A stretch of 64,000 nt of DNA from a phage. Below are positions 38,766-60,434 of this stretch, one piece after another. Numbering within the stretch: position 1 is the first letter of the stretch; each line of letters opens with the position of its first letter. The notes under the pieces are model-generated. The model was not told the DNA's origin. It worked only from the letters and a program-made list of their open reading frames with translations, and ran no database searches. The translations under genes and the position numbers were made by a program. The stretch is from assembly GCA_018175075.1 (NCBI GenBank), contig GCA_018175075.1_4100.1. The stretch is one strand, 5' to 3'.

Positions 38766-38782
38766 TTAAACACATAGAGACA

Positions 38783-38872
38783 GGGGAAGCTCCTAGTGAA
38801 CAACCTTTATGTACAGGCGAATTGTTAAAATTCAGCCTGGACAAATGCGATCACTAGGATTCTCCCCAGGCT
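38783..38872 (+). other. long-range inverted repeat / structured element after the small-gene array
   Basis: GGGGA..TCCTAGTGA (38783-99) pairs with TCACTAGGA..TCCCC (38851-67); AGCCTGG/CCAGGCT alternative stem. Confidence 0.4.
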
Positions 38873-39403
38873 AAACCCCGTAATCATAGGTAGTCATAAG
38901 TAATCATATATAAACATTTATATGAGCACCGTAGAATCACAGAATGATTATATATGATTCAGTACTGATTAGTATAGACAAGATTGCTCAAGAATGCACG
39001 GAAATGTGTGTGAATGATTCAGTACTGATATCCCACTAAGTAGGCAGAGGAAGTCTGCCGTACTTTGTAGTTTCCAAGCTCCTTTTCCATTTTGCAAATT
39101 ACATCAAATGTAATCAAAAGTAATCACACAATGATTAGTACTGAATTATTACTTTCACCTTAATTACAATTACCCTTTTACCCTTCGGGGTAAAATTCCA
39201 TTACCCCTTGAGGCTCCAGCAAAAAGTTGGTTAGTACTCCATCCTAAATCTCGATCCTAAAAATTTTGGAGTACCTATGAAATAAAAGTTGGATCTTCGA
39301 AAGTTGAAATTTACGTTGGGACGTTTATGATTTGTGGGATATAATGATGTTTGTAGTCGGGTAGTTCTCAAGAATATCAGTACTGAATGATGAAAGAAAG
39401 CTA

Positions 39404-39431
39404 TTGACTTTATGATTCAGTACTGTATAAT
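39404..39431 (+). promoter_or_regulatory. orphan promoter in the ORF-free hub
   Basis: TTGACT-N16-TGTATAAT-GTTTTACAT, same class as the mini-gene promoters. Confidence 0.55.
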
Positions 39432-39437
39432 GTTTTA

Positions 39438-39550
39438 CATAGAGAGATGAGTTGCCGCAAACAATTCATTCACTCTACTTCCTGTCGTGAGACAGTACAG
39501 AAAGATAGTTCCTCCTATGGGTGGTACATCTTTTAGAACCTCTTTTTTCG
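39438..39550 (+). ncRNA. candidate non-coding transcript (or 29-aa peptide mRNA, ORF 39447..39536)
   Basis: runs from the orphan promoter to T6 at 39543-48; contains CTGTC-GTGA-GACAG hairpin. Confidence 0.3.
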
Positions 39551-39819
39551 TAATATGAACAGTACTGATATTAACAGAATGGTGTCAGTACTGATTTTAA
39601 TTTAATGCATTATGCCACCAGCACAAGCTGGTGGATTCCCTCTAACAGTATTCAGTACTACATGATGGTCTTCATCCTCCTAGGGTAACATAGTGAGGGC
39701 TATGATGGCAGTACTGAATACTCCCTTTCAAAAGATAGATCTATGGTATAGTACTGACGGATTTTGGGCGTAGTTACCCTGGATGGATTTTGGGCGTAGA
39801 TATGTCTAGCCCTCCAGAA

Positions 39820-39950
39820 GTCTGGAAGTAAAGATGGCTATCCATCTAGACGGCTAAACGGCTAGATTTCTGGATGGCTGGATGGCTAGACGTTTGGACG
39901 GCTAAACGGCTAGATGGTTACACGTCTGGAAGTATAGACGGCTAAATCAA
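39820..39950 (+). repeat. iteron-like direct repeats
   Basis: GACGGCTAAACGGCTAGAT x2 (39849, 39897) + GACGGCTAAAT (39938); GGATGGCT x3; GTCTGGAAGTA x2; A/T tract follows. Confidence 0.6.
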
Positions 39951-40094
39951 AATTTTATTTTGTTTTTTCCAATAGTTCCCCTACCGCGTGGGGATAGTTT
40001 CCCCGCAGTATCTGGTGTTAGATTTTTCTGAATCTGGAATCATTATCTTATAAACTGGGGGCAATGTCAACGGCCTGGACGGATATTTTTAAAA

Positions 40095-40195
40095 ATTTTT
40101 TCAGTACTGAATTTTGGGCGTAACTATGCACCCGGTGGGCTGGAGTCTTTCTCGACTTGATGGAACTATTATACAGTACTGGAAAAATAAAGCAA
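40095..40195 (-). ncRNA. GGGTGC-core promoter-proximal RNA element, copy 1 (with promoter)
   Basis: TTGCTT-N16-TATAAT then ..GUCGAGAAAGAC..AGCCCACCGGGUGC..UACGCCCAAAAU. Confidence 0.35.
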
Positions 40196-40319
40196 TACCC
40201 TGGATGAAAAAAGTTTTAATTAATTTGCTTGCCATCCTGGGCCGGACTATGGTACTATAATTCAGTACTGAGAAAGTGCGTTAACCTGCTAGGGTGCGGG
40301 AGTGTATCCTTTTTTTATA

Positions 40320-40410
40320 TCTTGAATTTTGGGCGTAATTCCGCACCCTCTGGGGTTTCCGCTTTCTCGCGTCTATGTAGTAATTATACGCTTTTTCAGG
40401 ATCAAGTCAA
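40320..40410 (-). ncRNA. GGGTGC-core RNA element, copy 2 (with promoter)
   Basis: TTGACT-N16-TATAAT then ..CGCGAGAAAGCG..CCCCAGAGGGUGC..UACGCCCAAAAU. Confidence 0.35.
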
Positions 40411-40561
40411 TACCTAAAAACAAATAATTGAAAATAATTTAACGCGTTTAAACGGCCCGTAACGCCCTGGAATGATTAGAATGGTGCAAATGTATAGCTT
40501 AGGTGTATTAATGCGTTAGAATGCGTCTGAGGCCGTTTTATGGGGTGTAGTAGTGATTTGG

Positions 40562-40654
40562 TTGATTCAGTACTGAATAATAGTACTCCTATATAGAAAG
40601 ATAGTTCCCCTGGATTGATTCAGTACTGAATAATAGTACTCCTATATAGAAAGA
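40562..40654 (+). repeat. tandem direct repeat, period 53 bp
   Basis: TTGATTCAGTACTGAATAATAGTACTCCTATATAGAAAGA at 40562 and 40615. Confidence 0.7.
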
Positions 40655-40685
40655 AAACTATTTTAAAAGTACATGTAGAAAGTAC

Positions 40686-40745
40686 TTGCACCGTACTGAT
40701 AAAAGCGTATAATGTTTTACATCGAGAGCGGGAACACTTCCCGCT
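40686..40745 (+). promoter_or_regulatory. mini-gene promoter + 5'UTR hairpin unit
   Basis: AGTACTTGCAC..TATAATGTTTTACATC + AGCGGGAA-CAC-TTCCCGCT. Confidence 0.6.
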
Positions 40746-40768
40746 ACACTTTAAAAGAGATGAAAACG

Positions 40769-41131
40769 ATGGCGACTCAAATCAATAAAATCATGCTTAA
40801 CCTGGTAAACTTCCGCGATGAGATGAAAGGTCTTCCGGCTGAAACTGTAAAAATTCACATTGCAGCTTATCGGGAACTTATTGCAATGTTGCCGCTTAAG
40901 CGTGAACAATACGCCGCTACTTTGATGCTGGATTCAATGATCCATGTAATGATCTCAAATGATTTAACGATGGTTTATCAGTACATGGGAGAAAATTTCG
41001 CGGTGTGTAGTAAGCCAGTACCAGGGATGGCAACTACTGAGGAATTGCACGGTTTAAATTTAAAGCAAGATGCATGGGATAATATGCCTCGTTTCCTGGT
41101 ATGGGCTGACAGTGGCAAAATTTACAAATAA
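40769..41131 (+). CDS. hypothetical protein
   Basis: 120 aa from MATQINK; the track start 40712 lies inside the -10 box. Confidence 0.6.
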   Translation: MATQINKIMLNLVNFRDEMKGLPAETVKIHIAAYRELIAMLPLKREQYAATLMLDSMIHVMISNDLTMVYQYMGENFAVCSKPVPGMATTEELHGLNLKQDAWDNMPRFLVWADSGKIYK

Positions 41132-41145
41132 GTTTAATAAAGTAC

Positions 41146-41204
41146 TTGCAAACTATGTTTAATGGCGTATAATGTTTTACATCAGGTGGGGAATAGTTCC
41201 CCAC
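41146..41204 (+). promoter_or_regulatory. mini-gene promoter + 5'UTR hairpin unit
   Basis: TTGCAA-N16-TATAATGTTTTACATC + GTGGGGAA-TAG-TTCCCCAC. Confidence 0.6.
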
Positions 41205-41224
41205 TATATAAGAGGATTAAAAAA

Positions 41225-41464
41225 ATGGCTAAATCAAAAATGTTCTTAGGTCACAAAAACAAAACTCATTGGAATGTAAGCCTGTGGATTAATAACGATG
41301 AGGGATTGTATCGGTTGGCCCTGGATTTTATTAACGACAACACTAATCGCAATGATGCGGCCCGTCATATGATGTTATTTTTAGAACAGACTGGACAAGA
41401 TAAAACACCGGACGGATTCAAATATAGCACTACTGCGATCCGTGCGGCGATGGTTGGAATGTAA
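41225..41464 (+). CDS. hypothetical protein (paralog of 43265..43504)
   Basis: MAKSKMFLGHKNKTHWNVSLWINNDEGLY...TPDGFKYSTTAIRAAMVGM. Confidence 0.7.
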   Translation: MAKSKMFLGHKNKTHWNVSLWINNDEGLYRLALDFINDNTNRNDAARHMMLFLEQTGQDKTPDGFKYSTTAIRAAMVGM

Positions 41465-41554
41465 TAGAATAGAATTTATTTAAAGTACTATCGCAAAAAA
41501 TGATAGTACTTTATAATAGTGTTTTATTCATACACCAACGATAAGGGCAACAGC

Positions 41555-41818
41555 ATGAATATTAAGTATTTTGCGACGCGTGAACAAGCTCGGATCGCTG
41601 CACGCCAGGACGGGGCAACGTTTAAAGATATGGGCGTACAATCGGAACGTGGTAAACGTTGGGCCATTGTAAAGCGTAGTACCGCCAGATCATTACAGTA
41701 CTGGTTAGCGGCCTTAAAAAGTCCCGATAGTGTATCGCGTCGAGTGGTAGAAATAAAGCTCGACCGAAAGGGCAACCGCGTGACCGTGTACCGTACTAAA
41801 AAGATTGCAGTACTATAA
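41555..41818 (+). CDS. hypothetical protein (paralog of 54831..55226)
   Basis: MNIKYFATREQARIAARQDGATFKDMG...DRKGNRVTVYRTKK. Confidence 0.65.
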   Translation: MNIKYFATREQARIAARQDGATFKDMGVQSERGKRWAIVKRSTARSLQYWLAALKSPDSVSRRVVEIKLDRKGNRVTVYRTKKIAVL

Positions 41819-41826
41819 AAAAGTAC

Positions 41827-41885
41827 TTGCAAACTCTGTTTAATGGCGTATAATGTTTTACATCGAGAGCGGGAACACTTCCCGC
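41827..41885 (+). promoter_or_regulatory. mini-gene promoter + 5'UTR hairpin unit
   Basis: TTGCAA-N16-TATAATGTTTTACATC + GCGGGAA-CAC-TTCCCGC. Confidence 0.6.
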
Positions 41886-41906
41886 CTATAACCTGGAGTA
41901 ATAAAA

Positions 41907-42137
41907 ATGACTAATATGTATATGACTGAAGTTAAAACCGTAAAAGATACTACCACAAATAAAGTTACTTACTTACAGCGGATCTGTGGTGTATGGCAAC
42001 GTATCAGCAAATCAAAGTACTATAAATTAACATCATATGCAAACCGTTCTGATTCATTCAGTACTGAAATAAAAGGTAATAAAGTACACCAATACGGCAC
42101 TTATTATTATTACAGCCTGGACGCGATTGCAGTATAA
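41907..42137 (+). CDS. hypothetical protein
   Basis: 76 aa; promoter + GCGGGAA/TTCCCGC hairpin + GGAG SD. Confidence 0.65.
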   Translation: MTNMYMTEVKTVKDTTTNKVTYLQRICGVWQRISKSKYYKLTSYANRSDSFSTEIKGNKVHQYGTYYYYSLDAIAV

Positions 42138-42167
42138 GCAGTTTACAAATCTTTACAATTGCCGGTA

Positions 42168-42260
42168 TTGACTTATTTTGTCAGTACTGGCATAATGTAT
42201 TCATTGGCAGATAAGCCGTAGCCCATAGGGTGCGGGAGTGTATCTATAGAAAAATTAGTT
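42168..42260 (+). ncRNA. GGGTGC-core RNA element, copy 3 (with promoter)
   Basis: TTGACT-N17-CATAAT then ..GGCAGAUAAGCC..GCCCAUAGGGUGC. Confidence 0.35.
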
Positions 42261-42340
42261 TAGTATAGTTACAATTGTGCACCCGGTGGGTTAGCTGTTG
42301 TCATGGGGTATATTATGCCAGTACTGGATAGTGCTGTCAA
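42250..42340 (-). ncRNA. GGGTGC-core RNA element, copy 4 (with promoter), convergent with copy 3
   Basis: TTGACA-N17-CATAAT then ..ACCCACCGGGUGCACAAUUGUAACUAU. Confidence 0.35.
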
Positions 42341-42384
42341 TACTTTTTTAATATTCAGTACTGAAAACTATTTTTAAAAAGTAC

Positions 42385-42530
42385 TTGCAAACTATGTTTA
42401 AAGGCGTATAATGTTTTACATCAGGACGGGGAACGAAATAAGTAACTTCCCGTTAAGTAGCCCAGGAGTAAGGCACACGAAAAACTCCCCTGATAAAATA
42501 GTTTGACAATTGTTTTTAAAAGCGTATAAT
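42385..42530 (+). ncRNA. conserved ~80-nt leader RNA L1 between tandem promoters
   Basis: TTGCAA..TATAAT, AUCAGG..ACGGGGAA/UUCCCGU..UAAGUAG..GGAG/CUCC..CCUGAU, then TTGACA-N16-TATAAT. Confidence 0.4.
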
Positions 42531-42562
42531 ACTTACATCAACTACTGAATGAGGGTTACAAA

Positions 42563-43174
42563 ATGAAAACTATCACTACTACTACTTTCGTTATGGATTT
42601 TTCTGAATTGAACGCAGAACAAAAAACGTCAGCTATCGAACTGGTTCGGGAACGTGAAAAAAACTCAAACGACAATTATTTTTCTGAAAGTGAAATTGAA
42701 TACTATAAAGAAACAGTACTACCGGAATATGGCATTAATGACGCTGAAATACAATTCAGTGGCTTTTGGTCCCAGGGTGACGGTGCATCAATCAGTACTG
42801 ACCACGTTGACGCAGTGAAGTTTTTACGCAAGGTAAGAGCATTAACTAAGTATCGCTCAATCCGTCACCTGCTGAATGAAGATGATTTGGCGATGAGTGT
42901 AAAGCGTTCGCACTCCCACTACTCGCATGAGAATACTGTAAGCGGGTACATTGAATCGGCTTACACTGATTTAACCGCAAAACAAGAAACGTTAGTTAAT
43001 GAGCTTGAGGAACTACTCACTGAAACTATTCGTGAATTGTCCCGCAAGTTGTACCGTGATTTAGAGAATGCATATGAGGATCAATTCACCACTGAAAACA
43101 TTACGGCACTGATTGAGGGTAACGAATATCAATTCAATGTTATTGATGGCGTAGTAGAATCAATCGAATATTAA
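42563..43174 (+). CDS. hypothetical acidic protein
   Basis: 203 aa; FSGFWSQGDGASI motif; tandem promoters + conserved leader upstream. Confidence 0.7.
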   Translation: MKTITTTTFVMDFSELNAEQKTSAIELVREREKNSNDNYFSESEIEYYKETVLPEYGINDAEIQFSGFWSQGDGASISTDHVDAVKFLRKVRALTKYRSIRHLLNEDDLAMSVKRSHSHYSHENTVSGYIESAYTDLTAKQETLVNELEELLTETIRELSRKLYRDLENAYEDQFTTENITALIEGNEYQFNVIDGVVESIEY

Positions 43175-43185
43175 TTTAAAAAGTA

Positions 43186-43245
43186 CTTGCAAACTAAGTT
43201 TAAAAGCGTATAATACTTTATATCGAGGCGGGGAATGGTTCCCCG
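43186..43245 (+). promoter_or_regulatory. mini-gene promoter + 5'UTR hairpin unit
   Basis: TTGCAA-N16-TATAAT + GCGGGGAA-TGG-TTCCCCGC. Confidence 0.6.
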
Positions 43246-43264
43246 CTCAAACGAGGATTTAAAA

Positions 43265-43504
43265 ATGGCTAGTACTAAAACTTACAACGGTCACAAAAAC
43301 AAAACTCATTGGAATGTAAGCCTTTGGATTAATAACGGTGAGTCATTGTATCGGCTTGCTCAAAGTTGCATCGCACAAAGTAGAACTAAAGATATTGCTG
43401 CGGAATGTATGTACCGCAGATTAAAAGCCAACGGTACTACTACAACGCCGGACGGCTTTAAGTATAGCACTACTGCGATCCGTGCTGCAATGGTTGGAAT
43501 GTAA
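43265..43504 (+). CDS. hypothetical protein (paralog of 41225..41464)
   Basis: MASTKTYNGHKNKTHWNVSLWINNGESLY... Confidence 0.7.
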   Translation: MASTKTYNGHKNKTHWNVSLWINNGESLYRLAQSCIAQSRTKDIAAECMYRRLKANGTTTTPDGFKYSTTAIRAAMVGM

Positions 43505-43561
43505 TATTCAGTACTGAGATAATGGCGGGGAATGGTTCCCGCCTTTACTGAGGGTTATCTA

Positions 43562-43849
43562 ATGAGTAAAGTAATAAAGTACAATGTGTTAAGTAAATCA
43601 TTGTCTATCAGTGAATGCACCGATGGTTTTTGGATGTACGATGAAACGCGTGGCATGAATTTAGCTATGCGTGCAAAAACTGCTGAGGCGGCGTATATTC
43701 AAGCACTGGAATACTACCAGGAACGTTTAAAGGAAGTAGAAGAAGATTATAAAAGCCTCAAAGCGAAAGTAGATCATTTCGTCGGTCAATTCGTGGAAGA
43801 CAACGACGAGGACGGGCACTACTGCGACCGTTGCGGATCTTACAGTTAA
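43562..43849 (+). CDS. hypothetical protein
   Basis: 95 aa; leader hairpin GGCGGGGAA/TTCCCGCC; GAGGG SD. Confidence 0.65.
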   Translation: MSKVIKYNVLSKSLSISECTDGFWMYDETRGMNLAMRAKTAEAAYIQALEYYQERLKEVEEDYKSLKAKVDHFVGQFVEDNDEDGHYCDRCGSYS

Positions 43850-43866
43850 GTACTAAGGATTATATA

Positions 43867-44079
43867 ATGAGTGATTTAATTGAACGTATCAAAGAGCTTG
43901 AAGAAAAAGAATTGCAGTTGATCGGGTTACGGAATAAAGTATTCCATGATTTAGGTGGCTTTATTAATGCCTGGGATAGTGGCGATCCTGATGCGTTACC
44001 TGCTAACCGCCAGGCGATGATCAATGATGTGCGTGGTGTCTTTGAGTATGTTTTAAAAGTACTAGACACTAAGCAATAA
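43867..44079 (+). CDS. hypothetical protein
   Basis: 70 aa from MSDLIERIKE; AAGGA SD. Confidence 0.6.
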   Translation: MSDLIERIKELEEKELQLIGLRNKVFHDLGGFINAWDSGDPDALPANRQAMINDVRGVFEYVLKVLDTKQ

Positions 44080-44140
44080 AGGCGTATAATACTTTATATT
44101 GGTACTGACAAACATTATAAGCGATTCAGGAGCTTTAATC

Positions 44141-44326
44141 ATGACAACATTATCTGAGGTTATCCGCGTTCAAGCTGCAAAGGCTGGAATGACTGTTATC
44201 AATGTAGGGATCAAGATTGAGATCTCCCCTAACGAGTTGCAAGGGATTCCCGATCCTACTAGCTGGGATCGTGCTGGGCGAATGATGCGTAATGCTTCAT
44301 TACTGGACGGTACAAAATTTAATTAA
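44141..44326 (+). CDS. hypothetical protein
   Basis: 61 aa from MTTLSEV; AGGAG SD. Confidence 0.6.
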   Translation: MTTLSEVIRVQAAKAGMTVINVGIKIEISPNELQGIPDPTSWDRAGRMMRNASLLDGTKFN

Positions 44327-44333
44327 AAAGTAC

Positions 44334-44392
44334 TTGCAATTAGTTTTTAGTACTGTATAATGGTTTACATCAAAGGGAGAAATGGTTCTCCC
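44334..44392 (+). promoter_or_regulatory. mini-gene promoter + 5'UTR hairpin unit
   Basis: TTGCAA-N16-TGTATAAT + GGGAGAA-ATGG-TTCTCCC. Confidence 0.6.
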
Positions 44393-44411
44393 TGGTAATG
44401 AGGAAAATAAA

Positions 44412-44633
44412 ATGGCTAATATCACTACTCTTTCCCAACTGGAAGCACTGGTTAAATCTATGCGGGAACATGCCGACAAAATCGGCGTACAAGATCCAGC
44501 CGTTTGCTTCTGCGACGAAATGAATGATGATACACTGGTAATAGCAGAAGTCCAGGACGTTTCTAACTATTCCTCGCGTTACACTGGCGGCGTAGCAAAT
44601 AAAGGTGACTTCTGTTTATACCTTACAAAATAA
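44412..44633 (+). CDS. hypothetical protein
   Basis: 73 aa from MANITT; promoter+hairpin; terminator follows. Confidence 0.65.
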   Translation: MANITTLSQLEALVKSMREHADKIGVQDPAVCFCDEMNDDTLVIAEVQDVSNYSSRYTGGVANKGDFCLYLTK

Positions 44634-44638
44634 CAACG

Positions 44639-44668
44639 CGGGGAGATAATAACTCCCCGTTACTTTTT
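44639..44668 (+). terminator. intrinsic terminator
   Basis: CGGGGAG-ATAATAA-CTCCCCG + TTACTTTTT. Confidence 0.6.
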
Positions 44669-44768
44669 CAGTACTGAATCATTTAATAGACGGATCTCGG
44701 CACCCGGTGGGTTAGTGACTGTTTCGTCTTGATGTAGTAATTATGCCAGTACTGGATGCACTTGTCAA
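44639..44768 (-). ncRNA. GGGTGC-core small RNA candidate, copy 5 (promoter to hairpin)
   Basis: TTGACA-N17-CATAAT (44763-44740); ..GACGAAACAGUC..ACCCACCGGGUGC..; ends at CGGGGAG/CTCCCCG hairpin. Confidence 0.4.
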
Positions 44769-44876
44769 CAACTATTTTTCAAATACTTTTTATTAAAATA
44801 CTTGCAATTAGTTTTTAAACGCGTATAATGTTTTGCATAGGGGGAGCGGTTCCCCTGGTAACTAAGGAATAATAAA

Positions 44877-45113
44877 ATGCTTGAACAAATCAAATCAACG
44901 TCTGCGAATGTAACGGGAACGGTAGCACACTTTACTAGTGATGAATCGCGGGGCGTTCCCTATTGTGCTGTACATGTAAACACTGAGGGTAACTACTGGT
45001 TTACGGTTTACGGATCATATTCATTTGGACGGCCTGGACATCAAAAAATTCTGGATAAAGTACAGCCAACGGGTAAAAATATCACTGCTGAAATGTTTTA
45101 TAAAAAATCATAA
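44877..45113 (+). CDS. hypothetical protein
   Basis: 78 aa; promoter+hairpin+AAGGA SD. Confidence 0.65.
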   Translation: MLEQIKSTSANVTGTVAHFTSDESRGVPYCAVHVNTEGNYWFTVYGSYSFGRPGHQKILDKVQPTGKNITAEMFYKKS

Positions 45114-45198
45114 AGTACTTGATAATAGTTTTTAGTACTGTATAATATTTTACATCGCAAGGGGGGAGCGGTTCCCCCTGGTAACTAAGGATAATCAA

Positions 45199-45498: not shown

Positions 45499-45519
45499 TA
45501 GATACTACGGGGTAACATC

Positions 45520-53744: not shown

Positions 53745-53777
53745 ACTCACATCAACCACTGATAAGGAAACATAAAA

Positions 53778-54053
53778 ATGCGGATTCTACTGACAGCTAA
53801 CGAAATCGAACAAGTACTGACTACTAACCTGGAAGACTGGAAACGTGAAGCAGATATCCAGGCGGTTCAACAGCTTAACGATGAGTTAACGCCGGATGAC
53901 TTAAGCAAGATTGTAGATCCTCAATTCTACGAAGATATCCACGACACCGCGTTAAGCGTCGAGGATGTACTAGATAAGCACTACATTGATATTGATTTGC
54001 AGGTTTACGGTCGTAAAAACTTTATCACTATTCACGACATTTACAATAATTAA
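53778..54053 (+). CDS. hypothetical acidic protein
   Basis: 91 aa; tandem promoters + conserved leader upstream. Confidence 0.65.
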   Translation: MRILLTANEIEQVLTTNLEDWKREADIQAVQQLNDELTPDDLSKIVDPQFYEDIHDTALSVEDVLDKHYIDIDLQVYGRKNFITIHDIYNN

Positions 54054-54056
54054 GTA

Positions 54057-54118
54057 TTGACAAAGTATCTTAGTACTGTATAATAGTTTACATCGAGTGA
54101 GGGGAAACGGTTCCCCTC
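54057..54118 (+). promoter_or_regulatory. mini-gene promoter + 5'UTR hairpin unit
   Basis: TTGACA-N16-TGTATAAT + GAGGGGAA-ACGG-TTCCCCTC; near-identical copy at 54328-54390. Confidence 0.6.
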
Positions 54119-54141
54119 CTAACAAAGAGAGAGAAATAAAA

Positions 54142-54324
54142 ATGGCTAAGTGCACTATCTGCAAGAAAGAAATAGTATTAGTTCCAAGTGCCCGTGAACG
54201 TGCCGCTCGGTTCGGTGGCAAAGCGTCAGACTATACAAAAATGTTTACTACCCATGCAGCTTGCCAGGTAGCAAAACGTTCACAAGAAAGCGTAGAATTA
54301 ATGCGTAAACTTTCCAAAAAATAA
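54142..54324 (+). CDS. small Cys-containing protein (possible Zn ribbon)
   Basis: MAKCTICKKEIVLVP...THAACQV; promoter+hairpin. Confidence 0.6.
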   Translation: MAKCTICKKEIVLVPSARERAARFGGKASDYTKMFTTHAACQVAKRSQESVELMRKLSKK

Positions 54325-54411
54325 GTATTGACAAAGTATCTTAGTACTGTATAATAGTTTACATCAAGTGAGGGGAATGGTTCCCCTCCTAACTAAAAGA
54401 GAGAAATAAAA

Positions 54412-54735
54412 ATGGCTATGATCCTTGCCCAGAAAGTAGAATTGAAAATTGTAACCTCATTTGACATTAACGTTAATCGGTGGACTGATTCACACGGCAA
54501 TACTTACCACTCTTGCTACGTGTCTGCGTTAATTGGCGACCGCTGGGAAGACCTGGGACATGAAACCTTTACATACGGTTACGGCACACAAGGCGAATAC
54601 ACGGGCTTGGAGATCATTAAAGAAACCGTTATAGGTTTCAACCCGAAAGAAAAAGTTATTCACCAAATCGAAAAAGAGATTAACAAAGAAATAACAGTTC
54701 GATACAACGATGTAAAACGTAAGAAAGACATGTAA
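54412..54735 (+). CDS. hypothetical protein (paralog of 47590..47913)
   Basis: NRWTDSHGNTYHSCYVS...FTYGYGTQ...VKRKKDM. Confidence 0.7.
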   Translation: MAMILAQKVELKIVTSFDINVNRWTDSHGNTYHSCYVSALIGDRWEDLGHETFTYGYGTQGEYTGLEIIKETVIGFNPKEKVIHQIEKEINKEITVRYNDVKRKKDM

Positions 54736-54830
54736 TAGAATCCATTTAAAGTACTATTTGACATTGCCCAGATAGTACTTTATAATAGACTCTAACTTGT
54801 AGTACTAACTTAACTAATAGGATGTATACC

Positions 54831-55226
54831 ATGATTACTAAATTCTACGCTACCCGTGAAGCTGCCCGTATTGTTGCACGCGAGGAAGGAGCAGCATTTA
54901 AAGACATGGGCAAAGATGCACCGAAAGGCCAACGCTGGGCCGTACAGTTCAAAGAGATCTCTGATATTGTGAATTCACCTGAGCCAGTACTAACAGCAGC
55001 AGAACTAAAACGAGCGGATATGCTGGCGGCAATACTTGACGCACAAGATGAGTTTATCGCTGGTTCTGATATCAAAGTACAGGTAAACCACACCGCATGG
55101 ACTCACGCGGATCACCTGGCAAACCTTAAGCGTCCAAGTGAACTGATTCGCAACCAGAAAGAGATCCGACATGATCGTAAGGGTAATCGTGTAACAGTAT
55201 ACAGTAAACGCCGCCAGGTTATCTAA
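54831..55226 (+). CDS. hypothetical protein (paralog of 41555..41818)
   Basis: MITKFYATREAARIVAREEGAAFKDMG...DRKGNRVTVYSKRR. Confidence 0.65.
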   Translation: MITKFYATREAARIVAREEGAAFKDMGKDAPKGQRWAVQFKEISDIVNSPEPVLTAAELKRADMLAAILDAQDEFIAGSDIKVQVNHTAWTHADHLANLKRPSELIRNQKEIRHDRKGNRVTVYSKRRQVI

Positions 55227-55248
55227 TAACTTGCAGTACTAACAACAC

Positions 55249-55273
55249 GGCGGGATCAGTTCCCGCCTTTTTT
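55249..55273 (+). terminator. intrinsic terminator
   Basis: GGCGGGA-TCAG-TTCCCGCC + T6. Confidence 0.7.
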
Positions 55274-55287
55274 ATAGGACAAACAAA

Positions 55288-55542
55288 ATGATTAAGGTTC
55301 AACTATATAAAGATAACATCTTACGGGTACACTATAAAGCACCTCAGAGAATCATCACAAAGGCCGTACAGCTTGCTAATGAGTTTATTAATGGTAACCT
55401 ATTACCTAGGAAGTTAAGCAACGGGAAACTGCGTGTAATCGACGTGGACACTAACAACAGGATAGTAATCGAGAACACAGGAAAGATAAACCTTTATGAG
55501 CATCAACAATACAATAAGAAAATAAAACTAATATCACGTTGA
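55288..55542 (+). CDS. hypothetical protein
   Basis: 84 aa; follows terminator at 55249. Confidence 0.6.
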   Translation: MIKVQLYKDNILRVHYKAPQRIITKAVQLANEFINGNLLPRKLSNGKLRVIDVDTNNRIVIENTGKINLYEHQQYNKKIKLISR

Positions 55543-55595
55543 CAGTACTCAAATGTTTTAGTACTATGTACACATACCAACACGGGAGAAACAAA

Positions 55596-55814
55596 ATGAA
55601 ATTATCTAAAATCGAAAAGAAAACTATTGATGAAGCAGTTAAGCACGGTTATACCTTTCGTAATGATTCACATTTTACCAATTTTCAACAAGGGTATCGT
55701 ACTATTAAAAAACTAATTGACAAAGGTTTATTAGTTGAAGTCAATAACGGTAACGGTATCGAGTATCAACCAACACAAGACGCATTTTATTTTAAGAAAT
55801 ATAATATTATCTAA
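55596..55814 (+). CDS. hypothetical protein
   Basis: 72 aa from MKLSKIEKK; TTGACA-N17-TACTAT promoter at 55540. Confidence 0.6.
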   Translation: MKLSKIEKKTIDEAVKHGYTFRNDSHFTNFQQGYRTIKKLIDKGLLVEVNNGNGIEYQPTQDAFYFKKYNII

Positions 55815-55872
55815 TTGACAGTACTCAAATGTTTTAGTACTATATGTACATACCAACACGGGGAGAAACAAA

Positions 55873-56115
55873 ATGATTACTTTAGAAAAACGTATCAAAG
55901 AAACTACATCGCTGGTGGAACTGTTAACAGTACTGAAATGTAAAACAACACCATTCAGCACGCCGGACTTTATTAATATGGTTGATGTTAATGGTCGCTA
56001 TCGTATCACGGTCGTGAATGGTGCGGCGAAAGTATTCAGTACTAAAAACACTAAGGAAGTGATCCACGCCGTTAATGTTAAAAAAGTAGTTGCCATTGAT
56101 AGTAAAGTACTGTAA
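55873..56115 (+). CDS. hypothetical protein
   Basis: 80 aa; near-identical copy of the 55540 promoter upstream. Confidence 0.6.
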   Translation: MITLEKRIKETTSLVELLTVLKCKTTPFSTPDFINMVDVNGRYRITVVNGAAKVFSTKNTKEVIHAVNVKKVVAIDSKVL

Positions 56116-56146
56116 GATAGTTTCATTAACTCAAGGAGTAAATGCA

Positions 56147-56731
56147 ATGCGTAATTATACTAAATTCATCCGTACACTGTCAGAAATGGAAACCAACAAA
56201 GAGATCCTTTCAGCTTGTCGGTTAGCTGGCCTGGAGATCATCGGGGCGGGATCTTCCCGTATAGTTTTCGCTTTAAATGATCGGTTAGTGATTAAGGTCG
56301 CGAATTGTGATGCGGGTGTAGAACAAAATGAAACTGAATGTAAGGTATGGAATTTTTTAGACTATGACCGCCCTCAGTTGAAACAGTACTTTGCAAAGGT
56401 GCATATGCATTTATGCGATCCTGATAATATGTTTATCGTTATGGATCGGTTGAGTACTGCAAGCAAAGGCAGTGTGAAGCACGTTAACGCGTGCAATGAA
56501 TTAAAGTACAATATTAAACGTAATGCAATCGAACGCCAGCACCGCTTTGCTGATGCACTACAACACGTTGATGATACATTATCAACACTAACGATAAGAG
56601 ATATCAGAAAACAGAATATCGGCCAGGATCGTAATGGACTTATTAAAGTACTTGATTACGGTTTAACCCGCAATATCTGGAATCAGTACTATAAAAAGCG
56701 TGATGTAGCAGCAAGTAAGGTAACACGATAA
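56147..56731 (+). CDS. protein-kinase-like protein (mini-kinase 3)
   Basis: IIGAGSSRIVF...LVIKVA; RDIRKQNIGQDRNGLIKVLDYG; AAGGAG SD. Confidence 0.55.
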   Translation: MRNYTKFIRTLSEMETNKEILSACRLAGLEIIGAGSSRIVFALNDRLVIKVANCDAGVEQNETECKVWNFLDYDRPQLKQYFAKVHMHLCDPDNMFIVMDRLSTASKGSVKHVNACNELKYNIKRNAIERQHRFADALQHVDDTLSTLTIRDIRKQNIGQDRNGLIKVLDYGLTRNIWNQYYKKRDVAASKVTR

Positions 56732-56745
56732 AAAAGATTAAAAAA

Positions 56746-56832
56746 GGGATTGACTCCGGTCAGTCCCTTTGCTATTATATATTCATTGAGAGATAACTCA
56801 CTGACCCATAGGGTGCATAAGTGTATCTATTA
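56746..56832 (+). promoter_or_regulatory. fused terminator-promoter hairpin + GGGTGC-core element, copy 9
   Basis: same hairpin; TTGACT-N17-TATTAT; ..UGAGAGAUAACUCA..ACCCAUAGGGUGC. Confidence 0.55.
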
Positions 56833-56953
56833 TATAAGTATTCAGTACTGGAAACTATTTTTAAAAAGTACTTGCATTGTACTTAGAATCAAGTATAATG
56901 TTTTATATCGAGAGGGGGAAATGGTTCTCCCTGGTACATTAAGGAATAAAATC

Positions 56954-57175
56954 ATGACTACAATGACTTGCATTCACGCTTCAAACCTGCTTAATGATGC
57001 GGCCTTTAATGTTGATTCAGAATATCAATGTTATCGGGATGAAAATAAAAAAGTTTTTGTAGTTGATAATAATGGTTTCCATATTGAATTACAATCCGGC
57101 TTCACTGGTGTTGATGGTAAATCAGTATGGGGCGTACAGGATGATAAAGGTACATATCATTTTAAACGTAATTAA
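56954..57175 (+). CDS. hypothetical protein
   Basis: 73 aa from MTTMTCIH; the long track ORF runs through the regulatory module. Confidence 0.6.
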   Translation: MTTMTCIHASNLLNDAAFNVDSEYQCYRDENKKVFVVDNNGFHIELQSGFTGVDGKSVWGVQDDKGTYHFKRN

Positions 57176-57261
57176 GTATTGACAAAGTATATCAGTACTG
57201 TATAATAGTTTACATCAAGGGGAGAATAGTTCTCCCCACACCAATAAAAGGAAACAAAATT

Positions 57262-57534
57262 ATGTCCAGCTACTCCGCTACTATGATCATTAAAGATATG
57301 AACGGTAATCCTACTTCTGCTGGTGGATCATTTGGAAACATTAATTTAGATGGTCGGTTATCCATGCAATCAGCCATTGATGCAGCTAAAGAAGTTTTTA
57401 AGAATGAATGTACTGTAAGCAAGCTGGATTATATGGGATTCGCTATCGAGAAAACTAATCGTTTTGTGAACTACAAAAAGCCTATGATGATTGATACTAA
57501 CCTGAAAGCTAACGAAGTGGAATACTTATTATGA
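57262..57534 (+). CDS. hypothetical protein
   Basis: 90 aa; promoter+hairpin. Confidence 0.65.
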   Translation: MSSYSATMIIKDMNGNPTSAGGSFGNINLDGRLSMQSAIDAAKEVFKNECTVSKLDYMGFAIEKTNRFVNYKKPMMIDTNLKANEVEYLL

Positions 57535-57722
57535 CAGTAGAAGAAGTTAAAAAAGTACTGGCAGTACTACGCTATCATAATCATTGTAAGGTGAAGAATG
57601 ATCCTGATTATCTTGATTCATCCCTGGAGGAAGACACCTTAAACGCGATAAGCTATATGCAAACATTAGCAAAGCGTATGACCGAAAAGAATAGGCCGGA
57701 CTATATAGGAAATAAAATTTAA
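57531..57722 (+). CDS. hypothetical protein
   Basis: 63 aa; ATGA coupling. Confidence 0.6.
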   Translation: MTVEEVKKVLAVLRYHNHCKVKNDPDYLDSSLEEDTLNAISYMQTLAKRMTEKNRPDYIGNKI

Positions 57723-57809
57723 AAAGTACTTGCATTGTAGTTAGATTAACGTATAATGTTTTATATCGAGAGGGGGAAATGGTTTCCCCTCAAGTCCAGG
57801 AGATACACC

Positions 57810-58073
57810 ATGAACACTATCGAAATCACTATCAATGCACACGTATACGACAACGTAGTACTGCAAACTACTATGACCGCTAATGATACCAGTACTTTGC
57901 GGAATACTGTTATTAGTGCCGTATGTGCTGCAATCGGTGATGTCGCCCTGGAAAATGCAAAACACGTAAACGATGGTTTCACTATGTGCAAACGTGATAA
58001 CGCAAAACATATCATCGTGGAAGGTTACGGCGGTGTAGAATTTAATGTTTATATGAAAAAAGTACTTGCATAA
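57810..58073 (+). CDS. hypothetical protein
   Basis: 87 aa from MNTIEITI; 3' end (KKVLA*) overlaps the next -35. Confidence 0.65.
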   Translation: MNTIEITINAHVYDNVVLQTTMTANDTSTLRNTVISAVCAAIGDVALENAKHVNDGFTMCKRDNAKHIIVEGYGGVEFNVYMKKVLA

Positions 58074-58140
58074 TAACTAAAACAAAGTATAATGTTTTGC
58101 ATAGGGGGAGATATCCTCCCCCACTAAAAGGAGTAATAAA

Positions 58141-58365
58141 ATGGCTAACTTTGATGAACTGATGCGGGAAGTAGCTACCCTGGCAGAAGAGAAGAAATCA
58201 TTCGATTCTATCTATAACACCGCTCACCGTGATTCAGTACTGGCATGTACTCAGGATCAAAAAGATGAACTAATCGCCACCTATCATGAAGCATGGAAGT
58301 ACTACCGCCAATGGGAGAAAGAAGAAAGCGAGTCTACCATCAACGGCATCAATAATCTAATCTAA
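58141..58365 (+). CDS. hypothetical protein
   Basis: 74 aa; promoter+GGGGGAG/CTCCCCC hairpin. Confidence 0.65.
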   Translation: MANFDELMREVATLAEEKKSFDSIYNTAHRDSVLACTQDQKDELIATYHEAWKYYRQWEKEESESTINGINNLI

Positions 58366-58371
58366 AAGTTT

Positions 58372-58425
58372 TATTTCAGTACTATTGACATAGCTTGATA
58401 GTACTGATGTAATAACTTTACTAAC
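58372..58425 (+). repeat. type-2 promoter repeat (variant)
   Basis: ..TCAGTACTATTGACATAGCTTGATAGTACTGATGTAAT. Confidence 0.55.
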
Positions 58426-58441
58426 TACAAGGGGAAACATC

Positions 58442-58699
58442 ATGGAACAATTCACACAATATCGGGTAAATCCTCAAGCTATGGCCTACGTAGAAGACCA
58501 TAAAACGTTACCAGTACTGCAACCAGTTAAAGGCCATATCTATCGTGGCCTTGCCTGGGATACGGCCCAGGATGGATATAAAACCGTCGCAGTGGGGATG
58601 TATTGCGGGAATGGTGAATGGTTTGATCCTAACAATCCGATTGCACTTGACAGTACTGAAAAAATGAAATGGGCCGACTACATCGAAGATATTTCATAA
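58442..58699 (+). CDS. hypothetical protein
   Basis: 85 aa; type-2 promoter repeat upstream. Confidence 0.6.
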   Translation: MEQFTQYRVNPQAMAYVEDHKTLPVLQPVKGHIYRGLAWDTAQDGYKTVAVGMYCGNGEWFDPNNPIALDSTEKMKWADYIEDIS

Positions 58700-58789
58700 A
58701 AACTATTTGACAGTACTAACCAGTAATGTATAATGTTTTACATAGAGCGGGGGAATAGTTCTCCCGCCAATAGTTTGGAGTAAAACATT

Positions 58790-58990
58790 ATGTCTATCGC
58801 TATCGCCCTGGTTGAAGTACTGAAAGAAGCTAAAGCCAACCTTATCGATGTACAGATTAAGGAATTGCAAAACGGCTTAATCGGCTGTACTTGTACCGCT
58901 GGCGGTGCGGCAGACTATCGAGAACACGAATCACTCGAATCACTGGTTCGGTATCTTACCATGATCGTTGATGATTGGAGAATCATCTAA
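58790..58990 (+). CDS. hypothetical protein
   Basis: 66 aa; promoter+hairpin. Confidence 0.6.
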   Translation: MSIAIALVEVLKEAKANLIDVQIKELQNGLIGCTCTAGGAADYREHESLESLVRYLTMIVDDWRII

Positions 58991-59009
58991 CAAAAAAAGA
59001 ATAAAAAAA

Positions 59010-59090
59010 GGGATTGACTCCGGTCAGTCCCTTTGCTATTATATACGCATAGACAAAAACTAGCCCACAGGGTGCATAAGTGTATCCAAA
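59010..59090 (+). promoter_or_regulatory. fused terminator-promoter hairpin + GGGTGC-core element, copy 10
   Basis: same hairpin; TTGACT-N17-TATTAT; ..UAGACAAAAACUA..GCCCACAGGGUGC. Confidence 0.55.
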
Positions 59091-59238
59091 ATATATAGTT
59101 AATAACGGTGAGTAACTATCTGCTGGTGGAGTGAAAACTATTAATAAAAAAAAGTATTGACAAAGTATATCAGTACTGCAATAATGTATCTCGTAGGGCG
59201 GCAATGGTGCGACGGCCCACAAAGTTAGGAGATTCAAA

Positions 59239-59571
59239 ATGACTACTTCAATCGCTATCGTTAAAGCTTTCATCCGTACTAATGTTTCCTCTGTATTCAT
59301 CGACGGCCTCGACCGTAACGTAGAATACTCAATCATTATCGCACAAACGGCAAACGGTTCTCGGTACATCCTGAATGATAGTGAAGCAAATCACTACTAC
59401 TTCACTAAAGCCACTGGCTTTAAACGCATCGATGCTGATGTAGTATACGCTAAGATGAATAAGCTGGTAGACAAGATTAACGCGAAAGGTACTATCGATT
59501 TACAGTACTGGACCGAAACCGATCCAGAATATGGATCTCACCGCTACCTGAATCCAGGTATTAAAATGTAA
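59239..59571 (+). CDS. hypothetical protein
   Basis: 110 aa; TTGACA promoter at 59158; AGGAG SD. Confidence 0.65.
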   Translation: MTTSIAIVKAFIRTNVSSVFIDGLDRNVEYSIIIAQTANGSRYILNDSEANHYYFTKATGFKRIDADVVYAKMNKLVDKINAKGTIDLQYWTETDPEYGSHRYLNPGIKM

Positions 59572-59578
59572 AAAGTAC

Positions 59579-59640
59579 TTGCATAGTACTTAGAATCAAG
59601 TATAATGTTTTACATAGAGAGGGGGAAATGGTTCTCCCTC
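59579..59640 (+). promoter_or_regulatory. mini-gene promoter + 5'UTR hairpin unit
   Basis: TTGCAT-N16-TATAATGTTTTACAT + GAGGGGGAA-ATGG-TTCTCCCTC. Confidence 0.6.
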
Positions 59641-59660
59641 CTACTTTAAGGAGTATTATC

Positions 59661-60062
59661 ATGACCTTCACTATCACTTCTTACGCTGACGTTTTAGTAC
59701 TGGCCCGGACTTTTGGTAAAGCTGGCCTTGAACACGCTGTAAGTAATGGTCATATGCACCCTGAATATTGCCGCATCATTGGAAGCTGTAAACGTTGGGC
59801 CGTGTCCCGTAACATTGAGATTGAAAACTTCAATGACGGTAACAACGAATATACAGTTGATGCAGTATTCGAATCCGTTGATCTCGGCGGTATCTATAAC
59901 ACTAACCTGAATGATGTGCGTATCGTTCGCACGGGGTTCGGTGCTTATGATGTATCTATCCGTGAAGCTATGGACAAGGGATACATTAGCAAGGACCAGT
60001 TAGCTTACATCATGCAGCAAACTAAGGAACGTAACGAAGCACGTACTATCTTAGGGCTGTAA
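59661..60062 (+). CDS. hypothetical protein
   Basis: 133 aa from MTFTITSY; promoter+hairpin+AAGGAG SD. Confidence 0.65.
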   Translation: MTFTITSYADVLVLARTFGKAGLEHAVSNGHMHPEYCRIIGSCKRWAVSRNIEIENFNDGNNEYTVDAVFESVDLGGIYNTNLNDVRIVRTGFGAYDVSIREAMDKGYISKDQLAYIMQQTKERNEARTILGL

Positions 60063-60130
60063 GCAATACACATCACCAAACATCATAGGCCGCTCTCTAG
60101 CGGCCTTAACTATATCAGGAGGGCATACAT

Positions 60131-60340
60131 ATGTTCTATACAGTATACAGCGTTCTAGGCACTATTGCAGGCGTACATGATAACGTCAATGATGCTATGC
60201 GTACAGTACTGCAACAGGTTCCACTAAAGCCTAAGACCATTAAGCAGATGACAGCACGACTAACCAGGGCGACCGATGGCGTGGAAGTATGGCAGGACTA
60301 CGGGGATACACAGATAATCGTTAGCGTAACGAAGGATTAA
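60131..60340 (+). CDS. hypothetical protein
   Basis: 69 aa; AGGAGG SD; last gene of the G+C-richer block. Confidence 0.6.
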   Translation: MFYTVYSVLGTIAGVHDNVNDAMRTVLQQVPLKPKTIKQMTARLTRATDGVEVWQDYGDTQIIVSVTKD

Positions 60341-60368
60341 TGCGTAAAGGGATCTAGTACTGATTCAG

Positions 60369-60434
60369 AAAAAAGTCAAGGCGTTTTTAAAATTATGCGT
60401 TAAAAAAATGCATAGGTAATCCCTTGACTTTTTT
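60369..60434. repeat. 13-bp inverted repeat at the block boundary
   Basis: AAAAAAGTCAAGG (60369-81) / CCTTGACTTTTTT (60422-34). Confidence 0.5.

Follow-up and report, generated by a model that had tools for sequence, protein, structure and literature searches.

The phage contig GCA_018175075.1_4100.1 (NCBI GenBank assembly GCA_018175075.1) was analysed over a window of 64,000 nt, and we focus here on a block of distinct composition at positions 39039-60492 of this window, to which all coordinates refer. We conclude, with a probability of about 0.85, that the block represents the long direct terminal repeat (DTR) of a jumbo coliphage of the Asteriusvirus group (121Q/PBECO4 type), collapsed to a single copy, and that its interior is an immediate-early host-takeover module. 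Positions 39039 and 60492 correspond to experimentally mapped genome ends of relatives, consensus sigma-70 promoters stand upstream of the genes, and the codon usage is of the host type, with codons of the phage tRNAs depleted, both in the window and genome-wide in a relative. The preliminary description of this DNA had placed the block at 38766-60400, which is a near match, although the natural unit is 39039-60492 (21,454 bp); it did not recognise the block as a DTR, the edges of which align with mapped termini and would be the virion DNA ends. The existence of the Asteriusvirus DTR has already been published (2025-2026), and the location of early genes in long DTRs is an established idea.

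Genome ends and layout

Megablast placed the window in the Asteriusvirus group, a group of ~350-kb jumbo coliphages such as 121Q, PBECO4, G17 and phAPEC6, with CRJP21 as the top match (95% coverage, 94.8% identity). The first base of fEgEco12 (AGTAGGCAGAGG...) aligns to 39039 and its final base (...GGGCGGGTAACCT) to 60492, and beyond both positions the window runs on into sequence that constitutes the unique flanks in fEgEco12. In that phage a DTR of 20,993 bp was called by PhageTerm and confirmed by restriction digest (PMC13070987). Base 1 of CRJP21 and one end of the G17 record also coincide with 39039, the second G17 record end is identical to 60433-60492, and the records of ELP-22, E9.1 and vB_Ec-M-J likewise begin at the equivalent of 39039, the first base of the leader. 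Moreover, the CRJP21 record carries the block twice, at both record ends (1-20152 and 345887-366301). The length of 21,454 bp fits the ~20-22 kb expected of such a repeat, the relatives ranging from 20,030 to 22,456 bp: 20,668 bp in Sharanji, 21,525 bp in vB_Ec-M-J, 20,030 bp in Klebsiella phage Muenster and 22,456 bp, with 51 open reading frames (ORFs), in the related phage CBB. In the complete relative ECO103 4-12-1, the terminus motifs enclose a DTR of 21,275 bp.

These features are those that would be given by a linear virion genome with a ~21.4-kb sequence at each end, the two copies of which were merged by the assembly, leaving unique DNA on either side; the physical duplication of the DTR in this particular phage is thus predicted from sequence. 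The block had been described as bounded on both sides by repeat-rich ORF-free DNA, and this was borne out at both ends (Table 1), with repeats resembling those of 38877-39038 reappearing just inside the DTR, at 39093-39145. The repeat-rich, ORF-free character of the boundaries would be explained by the virion DNA physically ending there, and packaging or end-processing signals may reside at these places.

Alternatively, the region could be merely an internal early-gene cluster that is not terminally redundant in this phage, the genome being, for example, circularly permuted or having its ends elsewhere. Such a layout would be compatible with the permuted form in which many GenBank records of the genus were deposited, and with the relative UE-S1, which was reported to have a different DTR of 8.3 kb. 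The UE-S1 assignment was, however, deemed probably incorrect by the fEgEco12 authors, all carefully mapped relatives have ~20-21.5 kb at the same position, and both terminus sequences are kept base-for-base in the window. We consider a non-redundant region very improbable.

Table 1 Features of the DTR and of its surroundings in the 64,000-nt window.
Feature	Position	Strand	Remarks
DTR, single collapsed copy	39039-60492	+	21,454 bp; from fEgEco12 termini and CRJP21/G17 record ends
Unique DNA outside left terminus	38877-39038	.	GTAATCA x3, TGATTCAGTACTGA x2; TRF and direct inspection
ORF-free DTR leader, conserved DTR part	39039-40700	+	1.66 kb, no credible ORF
Orphan class A-like promoter	39404-39470	+	TTGACT-N16-TATAAT-GTTTTACATA, then 9-bp hairpin; no ORF behind
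Tandem 8-bp array (RRAYGGCT)	39816-39943	.	128 bp; ~780-900 bp from terminus; autocorrelation peak at lag 8
Three orphan class C units	40089-40380	cores - 40139, - 40354, + 40286	Promoter, ~30 nt, core CCCAnnGGGTGC; within leader
About 54 small co-oriented genes, putative immediate-early	40686-60340	+	Mean 83 aa; coding density 0.71 vs 0.78-0.92 in flanks
DUF7249 protein	41225-41464	+	Paralog at 43265-43504
Orphan class A promoter and element AAGTAGnCCnGnAGTAAG...ACGAAAAACT	42407-42502	+	More copies at 45886 and 53669
DksA/TraR-type C4 zinc-finger protein	51465-51722	+	85 aa; Pfam PF01258, E = 5.3e-9
GNAT family N-acetyltransferase	51787-52143	+	118 aa; Pfam PF00583, E = 4.1e-9
Weakly kinase-like protein	56147-56731	+	194 aa; Pfam Pkinase E = 0.0022 (below curated cut-off); PHROG 4301 E = 8e-42
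Class A promoter	40686-59640, 24-25 copies	+	A-tract, GTACTTGCA or TTGACA, N16, TATAAT, GTTTTACATC, then hairpin
Representative class A cassette	49015-49102	+	A-tract, GTACTTGCAA, N16, TATAAT, GTTTTACATG, hairpin GGGGAGAA-ATGA-TTCTCCCC, Shine-Dalgarno sequence, ATG
Class B promoter	47198-47274 (representative); also 47490, 50325, 50587, 58355	+	CAGTACTATTGACA-N17-CATAAT, hairpin-free; 5 copies
Class C unit	56738-56860	+	Terminator hairpin AAAGGGATTGACTCCGGTCAGTCCCTTT holds -35 box TTGACT, then TATTAT, core CCCATAGGGTGC (56805)
Class C cores	40286, 42222, 49542, 51197, 53532, 56805, 59064	+	
Class C cores	40139, 40354, 42290, 44711	-	
ORF-free right end of DTR	60341-60492	+	Ends ...GGGCGGGTAACCT
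Left flank array	34374-38765	+	~18 genes of ~60 aa, 3 paralog families; outside DTR
Right flank promoter and array	60532-63791	+	TTGACT-16-TAAAAT and ~11 packed paralogs of ~70 aa; no AGTACT

Promoters and the class A cassette

The plus strand of the DTR carries 48 sigma-70-like sites, at a density of 2.24/kb against 0.26-1.06/kb in the flanks, and 11 of them show the perfect 12/12 consensus (TTGACA-N16/17-TATAAT). An own sigma-70-like promoter ending 29-58 nt upstream was found for 35 of the 54 DTR genes (65%), compared to 12 of 79 flank genes (15%). The motif TATAATGTTTTACATC, allowing two mismatches at most, has 25 copies in the window where 0.21 are expected, 24 of which lie within 39426-59616, all on the plus strand. 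The earlier claim that nearly every gene has a private promoter with an invariant start region was thus overstated, with 24 motif copies for ~54 genes and any promoter at all for 35 of 54. Likewise, gene starts are not mostly ATGGCT (9 of 55, or 11 with ATGGCN), although this start is indeed enriched relative to the flanks (1-2 of 90 genes).

Of the promoters, 24-25 belong to a cassette that we call class A (Table 1), in which the promoter is followed by a hairpin with a 7-9-bp stem (GGGGAA-loop-TTCCCC; -10 to -16 kcal/mol). The 3' end of the hairpin stands 17-23 nt before the ATG, with the Shine-Dalgarno (SD) sequence in between. All 25 hairpins of this type in the window are inside the DTR, 24 of them placed 10-16 nt past a -10 box, and none was found in the 42.5 kb of flank. 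Stem positions 4, 6, 7 and 8 vary with pairing kept (G-C, A-T or G-T at position 4; GC or CG at position 6; GC, AT, TA or CG at position 7), and the loops, of 3-5 nt, differ in length and sequence. This compensatory variation argues for selection on pairing in a predicted RNA, and it is most likely as RNA that the hairpin acts. Possible roles are to shield the 5' end of the mRNA against decay that depends on RNase E/RppH, to insulate the ribosome-binding site, or to offer a phage factor a shared handle on the whole transcript class. An attempt to read the orientation of the hairpin off its purine-rich arm fails, an inverted repeat being the same on both strands. A search of Rfam over 38000-61500, covering the hairpin and the orphan units described below, gave just three weak matches, all under the gathering scores.

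The inverted repeat might instead be a DNA operator at which a dimeric repressor of phage or host origin shuts the early promoters. Its fixed site right after the start (+6 to +28) would suit a roadblock repressor, its arms are strongly conserved (GGGGAA/TTCCCC), and an early class requires some shut-off. What varies, however, is the sequence and not the pairing, and the G-T (G-U) intermediates pair in RNA but break the symmetry of DNA; the loops are not constant in length or sequence, and the tightly fixed spacing to SD and ATG suggests a role at the level of the mRNA. An operator is in our opinion improbable.

The cassette was also searched for in the complete genome of ECO103 4-12-1, of which 350 kb were scanned. 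All 24 copies of TATAATRKTTTRYAT lie inside its DTR, on one strand, with none in the other ~329 kb, and all promoter-hairpin cassettes of this genome are inside the DTR as well.

In the window, DTR-style promoters (TTGACA-N-CAGTACTGTATAAT) are also present outside the DTR, at 13869-13960 and 2437-2500, the one at ~13.9 kb being followed by a G+C-rich hairpin (GGGGATGA-ACTTC-TCATCCC), and a two-mismatch copy of the motif lies at 6989. The early class may have scattered outposts beyond the DTR.

Composition and codon usage

The G+C content is 0.386 in 40701-60340 and 0.385 in 38766-40700, against 0.342, 0.351 and 0.346 in the flanks, a significant difference (Mann-Whitney p = 1.4e-8, 500-bp windows). 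Densities in the block and in the flanks are, respectively, 1.17 and 0-0.58/kb for CCGG, 4.99 and 1.06-1.48/kb for GGCG/CGCC, and 18.5 and 6-7/kb for CGC/GCG. The impression, gained by eye in the preliminary description, of a G+C-rich block with frequent CCGG, GGCG and CGC therefore holds on computation. The excess is located in the coding sequences, with a G+C content of 0.406 for the DTR genes (GC1/2/3 = 0.49/0.34/0.38; G+C at third codon positions (GC3) 0.381) versus 0.33-0.36 for the flank genes, and of only 0.348 for the spacers between DTR genes; hairpins and terminators as the source of the excess were rejected on these values.

The synonymous shift is codon-specific. DTR genes are enriched in CTG (share of 0.25, against 0.12 in the small flank genes and 0.03 in the genes of the left flank that resemble the regulator of chromosome condensation, RCC1), ATC (0.48 against 0.22 and 0.09), GGC (0.27 against 0.06 and 0.07) and CCG (0.28 against 0.07 and 0.07), while CTC, CCC, GTC and TCG remain low, which amounts to a shift toward the codons preferred by E. 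coli. The frequency of optimal codons (Fop), calculated with an E. coli-optimal set based on Sharp and Li-type preferences, is 0.565 in the DTR and 0.438 outside it (p = 3e-46).

No tRNA was found in a tRNA scan of the window. A complete relative encodes Thr-UGU, Arg-UCU, Gly-UCC, Ser-UGA, Ser-ACU, Asn-GUU and a CAU tRNA, and a similar set was reported for UE-S1. In the window, the codons most strongly depleted in DTR genes are those cognate to the phage tRNAs: AGA (0.07 vs 0.30 in non-DTR genes, p = 3e-12), ATA (0.09 vs 0.30, p = 4e-16), ACA (0.19 vs 0.36, p = 5e-9) and GGA (0.15 vs 0.23, p = 0.005).

The same partition is seen across the genome of ECO103 4-12-1, where medians were compared over 574 ORFs, with n = 51 for the DTR genes. 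Fop is 0.545 in the DTR and 0.428 in the rest (p = 3e-14), the fraction of phage-tRNA codons 0.125 and 0.286 (p = 8e-12), and GC3 0.377 and 0.246 (p = 6e-20); the two bins that lie wholly in the DTR are the extremes of all 35 bins. The DTR is also the G+C maximum of this genome (~0.385, vs 0.309-0.372 in thirty other 10-kb windows), and at its left boundary the G+C content drops from 0.37-0.41 to ~0.34. Phage-tRNA codon use reaches its maximum for the genome (0.42) in the bins immediately to the right of the DTR, which make the sharpest contrast with it.

Several observations weigh against our interpretation. CGG, a rare codon in E. coli, is also up in the DTR (0.17 vs 0.01), and therefore part of the codon shift is a plain increase in G+C and not host optimisation; the ORF-free leader is G+C-rich too (0.385) without coding for anything. 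Strong sigma-70-like sites are found elsewhere in ECO103 4-12-1 (3-9 per 10 kb in a few bins), and therefore the DTR is probably not the sole early region. The unpaired 5' leader predicted before the class A hairpin is ~4-8 nt long if a typical start 7 nt past the -10 box is assumed. Such a length reaches or exceeds what is usually held protective, and a role of the hairpin as a stabiliser protecting the 5' end is therefore uncertain. Finally, we infer terminal redundancy and early timing for this phage from homology and sequence logic.

Gene content and mosaicism

Gene starts in the DTR were corrected by hand against the gene lengths of fEgEco12, in which the counterpart array is annotated g01-g056. 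Apart from the proteins listed in Table 1, a ParE-like domain and DUF7247 were recognised among the DTR proteins, and most of the others have no recognised function. Three pairs of paralogs are present: the DUF7249 pair, 41555/54831 and 47590/54412. The gene content, with its DksA/TraR zinc finger, GNAT, ParE-like and kinase-like proteins, fits a predicted role in host takeover.

The DTR was compared with the same-sized left flank (window 1-21454) as a control. For the flank, 52 records matched and 17 covered at least 80%, with fEgEco12 at 85.8% identity and 121Q at 97.3% identity and 89% coverage. For the DTR, 225 records matched and 1 covered at least 80%, with fEgEco12 at 96.5% identity and 121Q at 89.3% identity and 26% coverage. 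Relatedness is thus discordant between the two, fEgEco12 being closer in the DTR and 121Q in the flank. Single DTR genes occur in rV5-like and phi92-like phages at 75-90% nucleotide identity, which indicates that early genes are exchanged between unrelated coliphage lineages. The DUF7249 gene (43202-43506) and other single DTR genes are shared at 75-93% with ~135-150-kb rV5-like, phi92-like and Phapecoctavirus coliphages. Records of the same size class labelled as Campylobacter phage share single DTR genes as well; their host labels look doubtful.

This mosaicism bears on the origin of the composition shift, which could be a by-product of the recombination regime of the DTR and not the result of translational selection for early expression. 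DTRs recombine in circularisation or concatemer formation, and frequent homologous exchange, biased gene conversion or a steady import from a shared pool of higher-G+C coliphage early genes could all raise the G+C content; the discordant similarities, the genes held in common with other phage genera, the rise of the rare codon CGG and the G+C-rich non-coding leader would all follow. Such processes would not readily explain why CTG, CCG, ATC and GGC rise but CTC, CCC, GTC and TCG stay low, why depletion peaks at precisely the codons that phage tRNAs read, or why the spacers among DTR genes show no enrichment. The codon-specific pattern and the unshifted spacers favour selection over a recombination-linked G+C shift, and we regard the latter as rather unlikely to be the explanation. 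The two are not mutually exclusive, and recombination may contribute to the G+C shift.

The block had also been proposed to be horizontally acquired or to evolve as a separate module. A genomic island or mobile element taken up horizontally from a source richer in G+C would account for the higher G+C content, the distinct codon usage, the content that is highly mosaic among relatives, and the individual genes 75-90% identical to those of unrelated rV5-like and phi92-like coliphages. Yet the unit has the same position and the same ends in all Asteriusvirus records examined, Muenster, CBB and PA5oct show that other genera have counterparts, the 1.66-kb leader is kept throughout the genus (36 records at 80% or more), and no variation in presence or absence was seen at the locus. 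Furthermore, the edges are mapped physical ends and not att-like repeats, the intergenic DNA is not enriched in G+C, and a Pfam scan of the 54 DTR proteins found no integrase, transposase or other recombinase domain, in agreement with the preliminary description, which had noted no integrase or transposase. The mobile-element reading was rejected for want of a recombinase and for the presence of the unit in all relatives; horizontal acquisition of the block is unsupported, and an island is in our view extremely unlikely. Separate evolution is correct as regards the gene content, which is mosaic (1 vs 17 records at 80% or more), and incorrect for the unit, a fixed genome feature in relatives. 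The lack of a significant composition shift, together with the same contiguous block in all relatives, was to count against the module proposed earlier: the shift is significant, the unit and its leader are present in all Asteriusvirus records, and the internal gene content varies.

Non-coding elements of the leader and the interior

Within the DTR it is the leader that is conserved: coverage of at least 80% is reached by 36 records for the leader (85-97% identity), versus 1 record for the whole DTR. The leader is rich in CAGTACTG palindromes and contains the tandem 8-bp array, of ~13-16 units (GGATGGCT / AGACGGCT / AAACGGCT). In all Asteriusvirus records beginning at the physical end, this array stands at a distance of 773-923 bp from the terminus. 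The array may be a shared terminus-associated element, comparable to the SRL/SRR heptamer arrays of T7. Related arrays were observed near the genome or record ends of DTR phages not related to this group, at 40-114 bp in the T7-like podovirus PGT2, at ~70-140 bp in the podovirus KPV811, at 10-840 bp in ~127-kb Vibrio harveyi phages and at ~650-850 bp in jumbo phages of Erwinia, Serratia and Xanthomonas; one is also carried by T5-like phages of Aeromonas, Vibrio and Providencia.

Eleven ORF-free units, referred to as class C, are composed of a sigma-70-like promoter, ~30 nt and the invariant core CCCAnnGGGTGC (7 on the plus and 4 on the minus strand). Some form convergent pairs, and the -35 box of 4 copies is embedded in the stem of the terminator before it. 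Klebsiella phage Muenster has the core in its DTR as well, in one case only 18 nt away from the terminus, and a stretch homologous to 40089-40380 is found in that phage at an equal distance from the terminus. RNAalifold on the 11 units gave a trivial 4-bp stem with no covariation, and we do not claim them as structured small RNAs, since they are conserved in sequence and not in RNA structure.

A further element (GACGGGGA..AAGTAGnCCnGnAGTAAG..ACGAAAAACT) stands directly behind class A promoters at 42407-42502, 45860-45983 and 53628-53716. After two of these copies come a second promoter and a gene, and the third forms a 120-nt 5' untranslated region. These elements may be small RNAs or leader elements.

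The palindromic hexamer AGTACT, often within CAGTACTG or TTCAGTACTGAA, occurs 143 times in the DTR (~6 expected) and 140 times in the left 39 kb (~15 expected), and it is absent from 60493-64000. Its density peaks in the DTR, where it abuts both promoter hexamers; outside the DTR, ~85% of the copies lie inside genes, in all three reading frames, and it forms the terminator stems of the RCC1-like array. In a relative, 83-144 copies per 50 kb are spread genome-wide, 4-9x the first-order expectation, and the first 2.7 kb of the Muenster DTR contain 28. In the window, the excess is 9- to 20-fold over a first-order Markov model, most of which disappears under an order-4 model (140 vs 112), the signal being carried by GTAC-containing pentamers. 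AGTACT is a candidate site for protein binding or modification, and no function is claimed.

Two readings of these observations that go further than an ordinary early region are offered tentatively, and we think them unlikely: that the promoter-hairpin cassette is an RNA-level regulon tag, and that the non-coding elements of the terminus form a shared end architecture. Were the first true, ~25 immediate-early mRNAs would have a common 5' stem-loop, and a phage factor or a phage-modified host RNase could stabilise or destroy the whole class together. Were the second true, the 8-bp array, the 11 class C units and the dense AGTACT would serve to generate the DTR, to let the DNA enter or to protect the ends. 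The searchable literature yielded no description of the cassette, of the DTR-matched codon/tRNA partition or of the orphan units, nor of an end architecture shared by the non-coding elements of the terminus.

Flanking arrays

AT-rich tandem arrays of small genes had been noted on either side of the block, and arrays of paralogs are indeed present at 34.4-38.8 kb and 60.6-63.8 kb. The two arrays (34374-38765 and 60560-63791) show no relationship with each other or with the DTR genes, and their stop and start codons often overlap. Further left, on the minus strand of 21025-34271, ~12 tandem paralogs of ~370-400 aa all start with MLPF.RM..YGN; the annotation in relatives is regulator of chromosome condensation (RCC1-like) or DNA condensation protein. 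Behind each of them stand a GCCAGTACT...TACTGGC terminator and a promoter-like ATATAGTATAAT that is conserved, and these genes lean heavily on phage-tRNA codons (AGA 0.52, ATA 0.45).

Discussion

Long terminal repeats that harbour the first genes to be expressed are known from several phages. Of the interpretations put forward in the preliminary description, that of a distinct temporal class such as immediate-early genes is the best supported, by the dense sigma-70 promoters, the host-tuned codons and the RNA sequencing (RNA-seq) of the PA5oct DTR. By analogy with such systems, the role of the block is most likely immediate-early host takeover. On entry, host RNA polymerase with sigma-70 would at once use ~45 strong promoters, all aimed inward from the left end and many with A-rich upstream tracts and AT-rich discriminators. 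The mRNAs would be translated by the host tRNA pool, and the DTR genes would have host-type codons because the phage tRNAs (Arg-UCU, Thr-UGU, Gly-UCC and a CAU tRNA) are not yet made at this early time. The products, small proteins with a DksA/TraR-like factor, an acetyltransferase and a kinase-like protein among them, would redirect the host, and later genes would rely on a phage sigma factor and on the phage tRNAs. As a speculation, co-oriented promoters at the entering end could help to pull the DNA in, as in T7.

No Asteriusvirus transcriptome was found in the searchable literature. The related Pseudomonas jumbo phage PA5oct has a 39-kb DTR of 105 genes, many of them strongly transcribed at 5 min as shown by RNA-seq; its infection is rifampicin-sensitive and dependent on host RNA polymerase, its promoters read TTGAC/TATAATA, and two abundant non-coding RNAs map in the DTR. 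The likeness lies in a long DTR of small function-unassigned genes with promoters for the host polymerase. Host, size and sequences differ, the early timing is experimental there and predicted here, and no 5' hairpin cassette was reported for PA5oct.

The closest counterparts are the DTRs of fEgEco12, Sharanji and vB_Ec-M-J, with up to 96.5% identity, the same terminal bases and size, and the same order of a leader followed by ~55 small co-oriented genes. Among Asteriusvirus DTRs the genes are mosaic, the best record covering 95% and most 25-60%. The published accounts consulted give the existence and the size of the DTR; promoter-hairpin cassettes, codon partition and non-coding elements are not reported in them.

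In T5 and BF23, the pre-early (first-step-transfer) genes sit in ~10-kb terminal repeats and have strong host-type promoters. The block studied here resembles these in being a terminal repeat with the putative first-expressed genes and in having ORF-free repeat-rich DNA near its end, and differs in that the repeat is twice as long and the genome three times larger. To our knowledge, neither a transfer of the DNA in two steps nor an injection stop signal is known for the present phage group. The T5 families A1, A2 and dmp were not listed in the general Pfam scan of DTR proteins, in which no dedicated search for them was made.

SPO1 is said, from the work of Stewart et al. in 1998, to have a host-takeover module of ~24 small genes in its terminal redundancy, reportedly organised in numerous short units, in each of which a strong early promoter is combined with a strong ribosome-binding site. 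Small early genes in a terminal redundancy and per-unit promoters are thus common to the long terminal repeats of SPO1/Herelleviridae and to the block, while the former have a Gram-positive host, sigma-A promoters and unrelated genes; we know of no shared 5' hairpin in them. In T4, codons read by phage tRNAs are reportedly favoured in later genes and avoided in early ones, as described by Kunisawa in 1992. The codon partition differs here in coinciding sharply with a physical unit, the DTR, which is the genome-wide extreme.

Our analysis suggests that the physical ends of these 350-kb phages can be recognised by a step in G+C content, in codon usage and in promoter grammar, so that the DTR could be located from sequence alone. 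Many GenBank records of the genus are permuted or repeat-collapsed, and such a landmark would aid annotation and assembly. Our analysis also defines ~54 candidate host-takeover or anti-defence genes and a uniform, putatively very strong expression cassette (consensus promoter, 5' hairpin and SD) that could serve as a synthetic-biology part. The partition of codons between the DTR and the rest, matched to the phage tRNA set, would be a clean natural case of temporal codon tuning. Finally, the conserved non-coding elements near the terminus are the likeliest place for something new, and point to the recognition, duplication or injection of long repeats.

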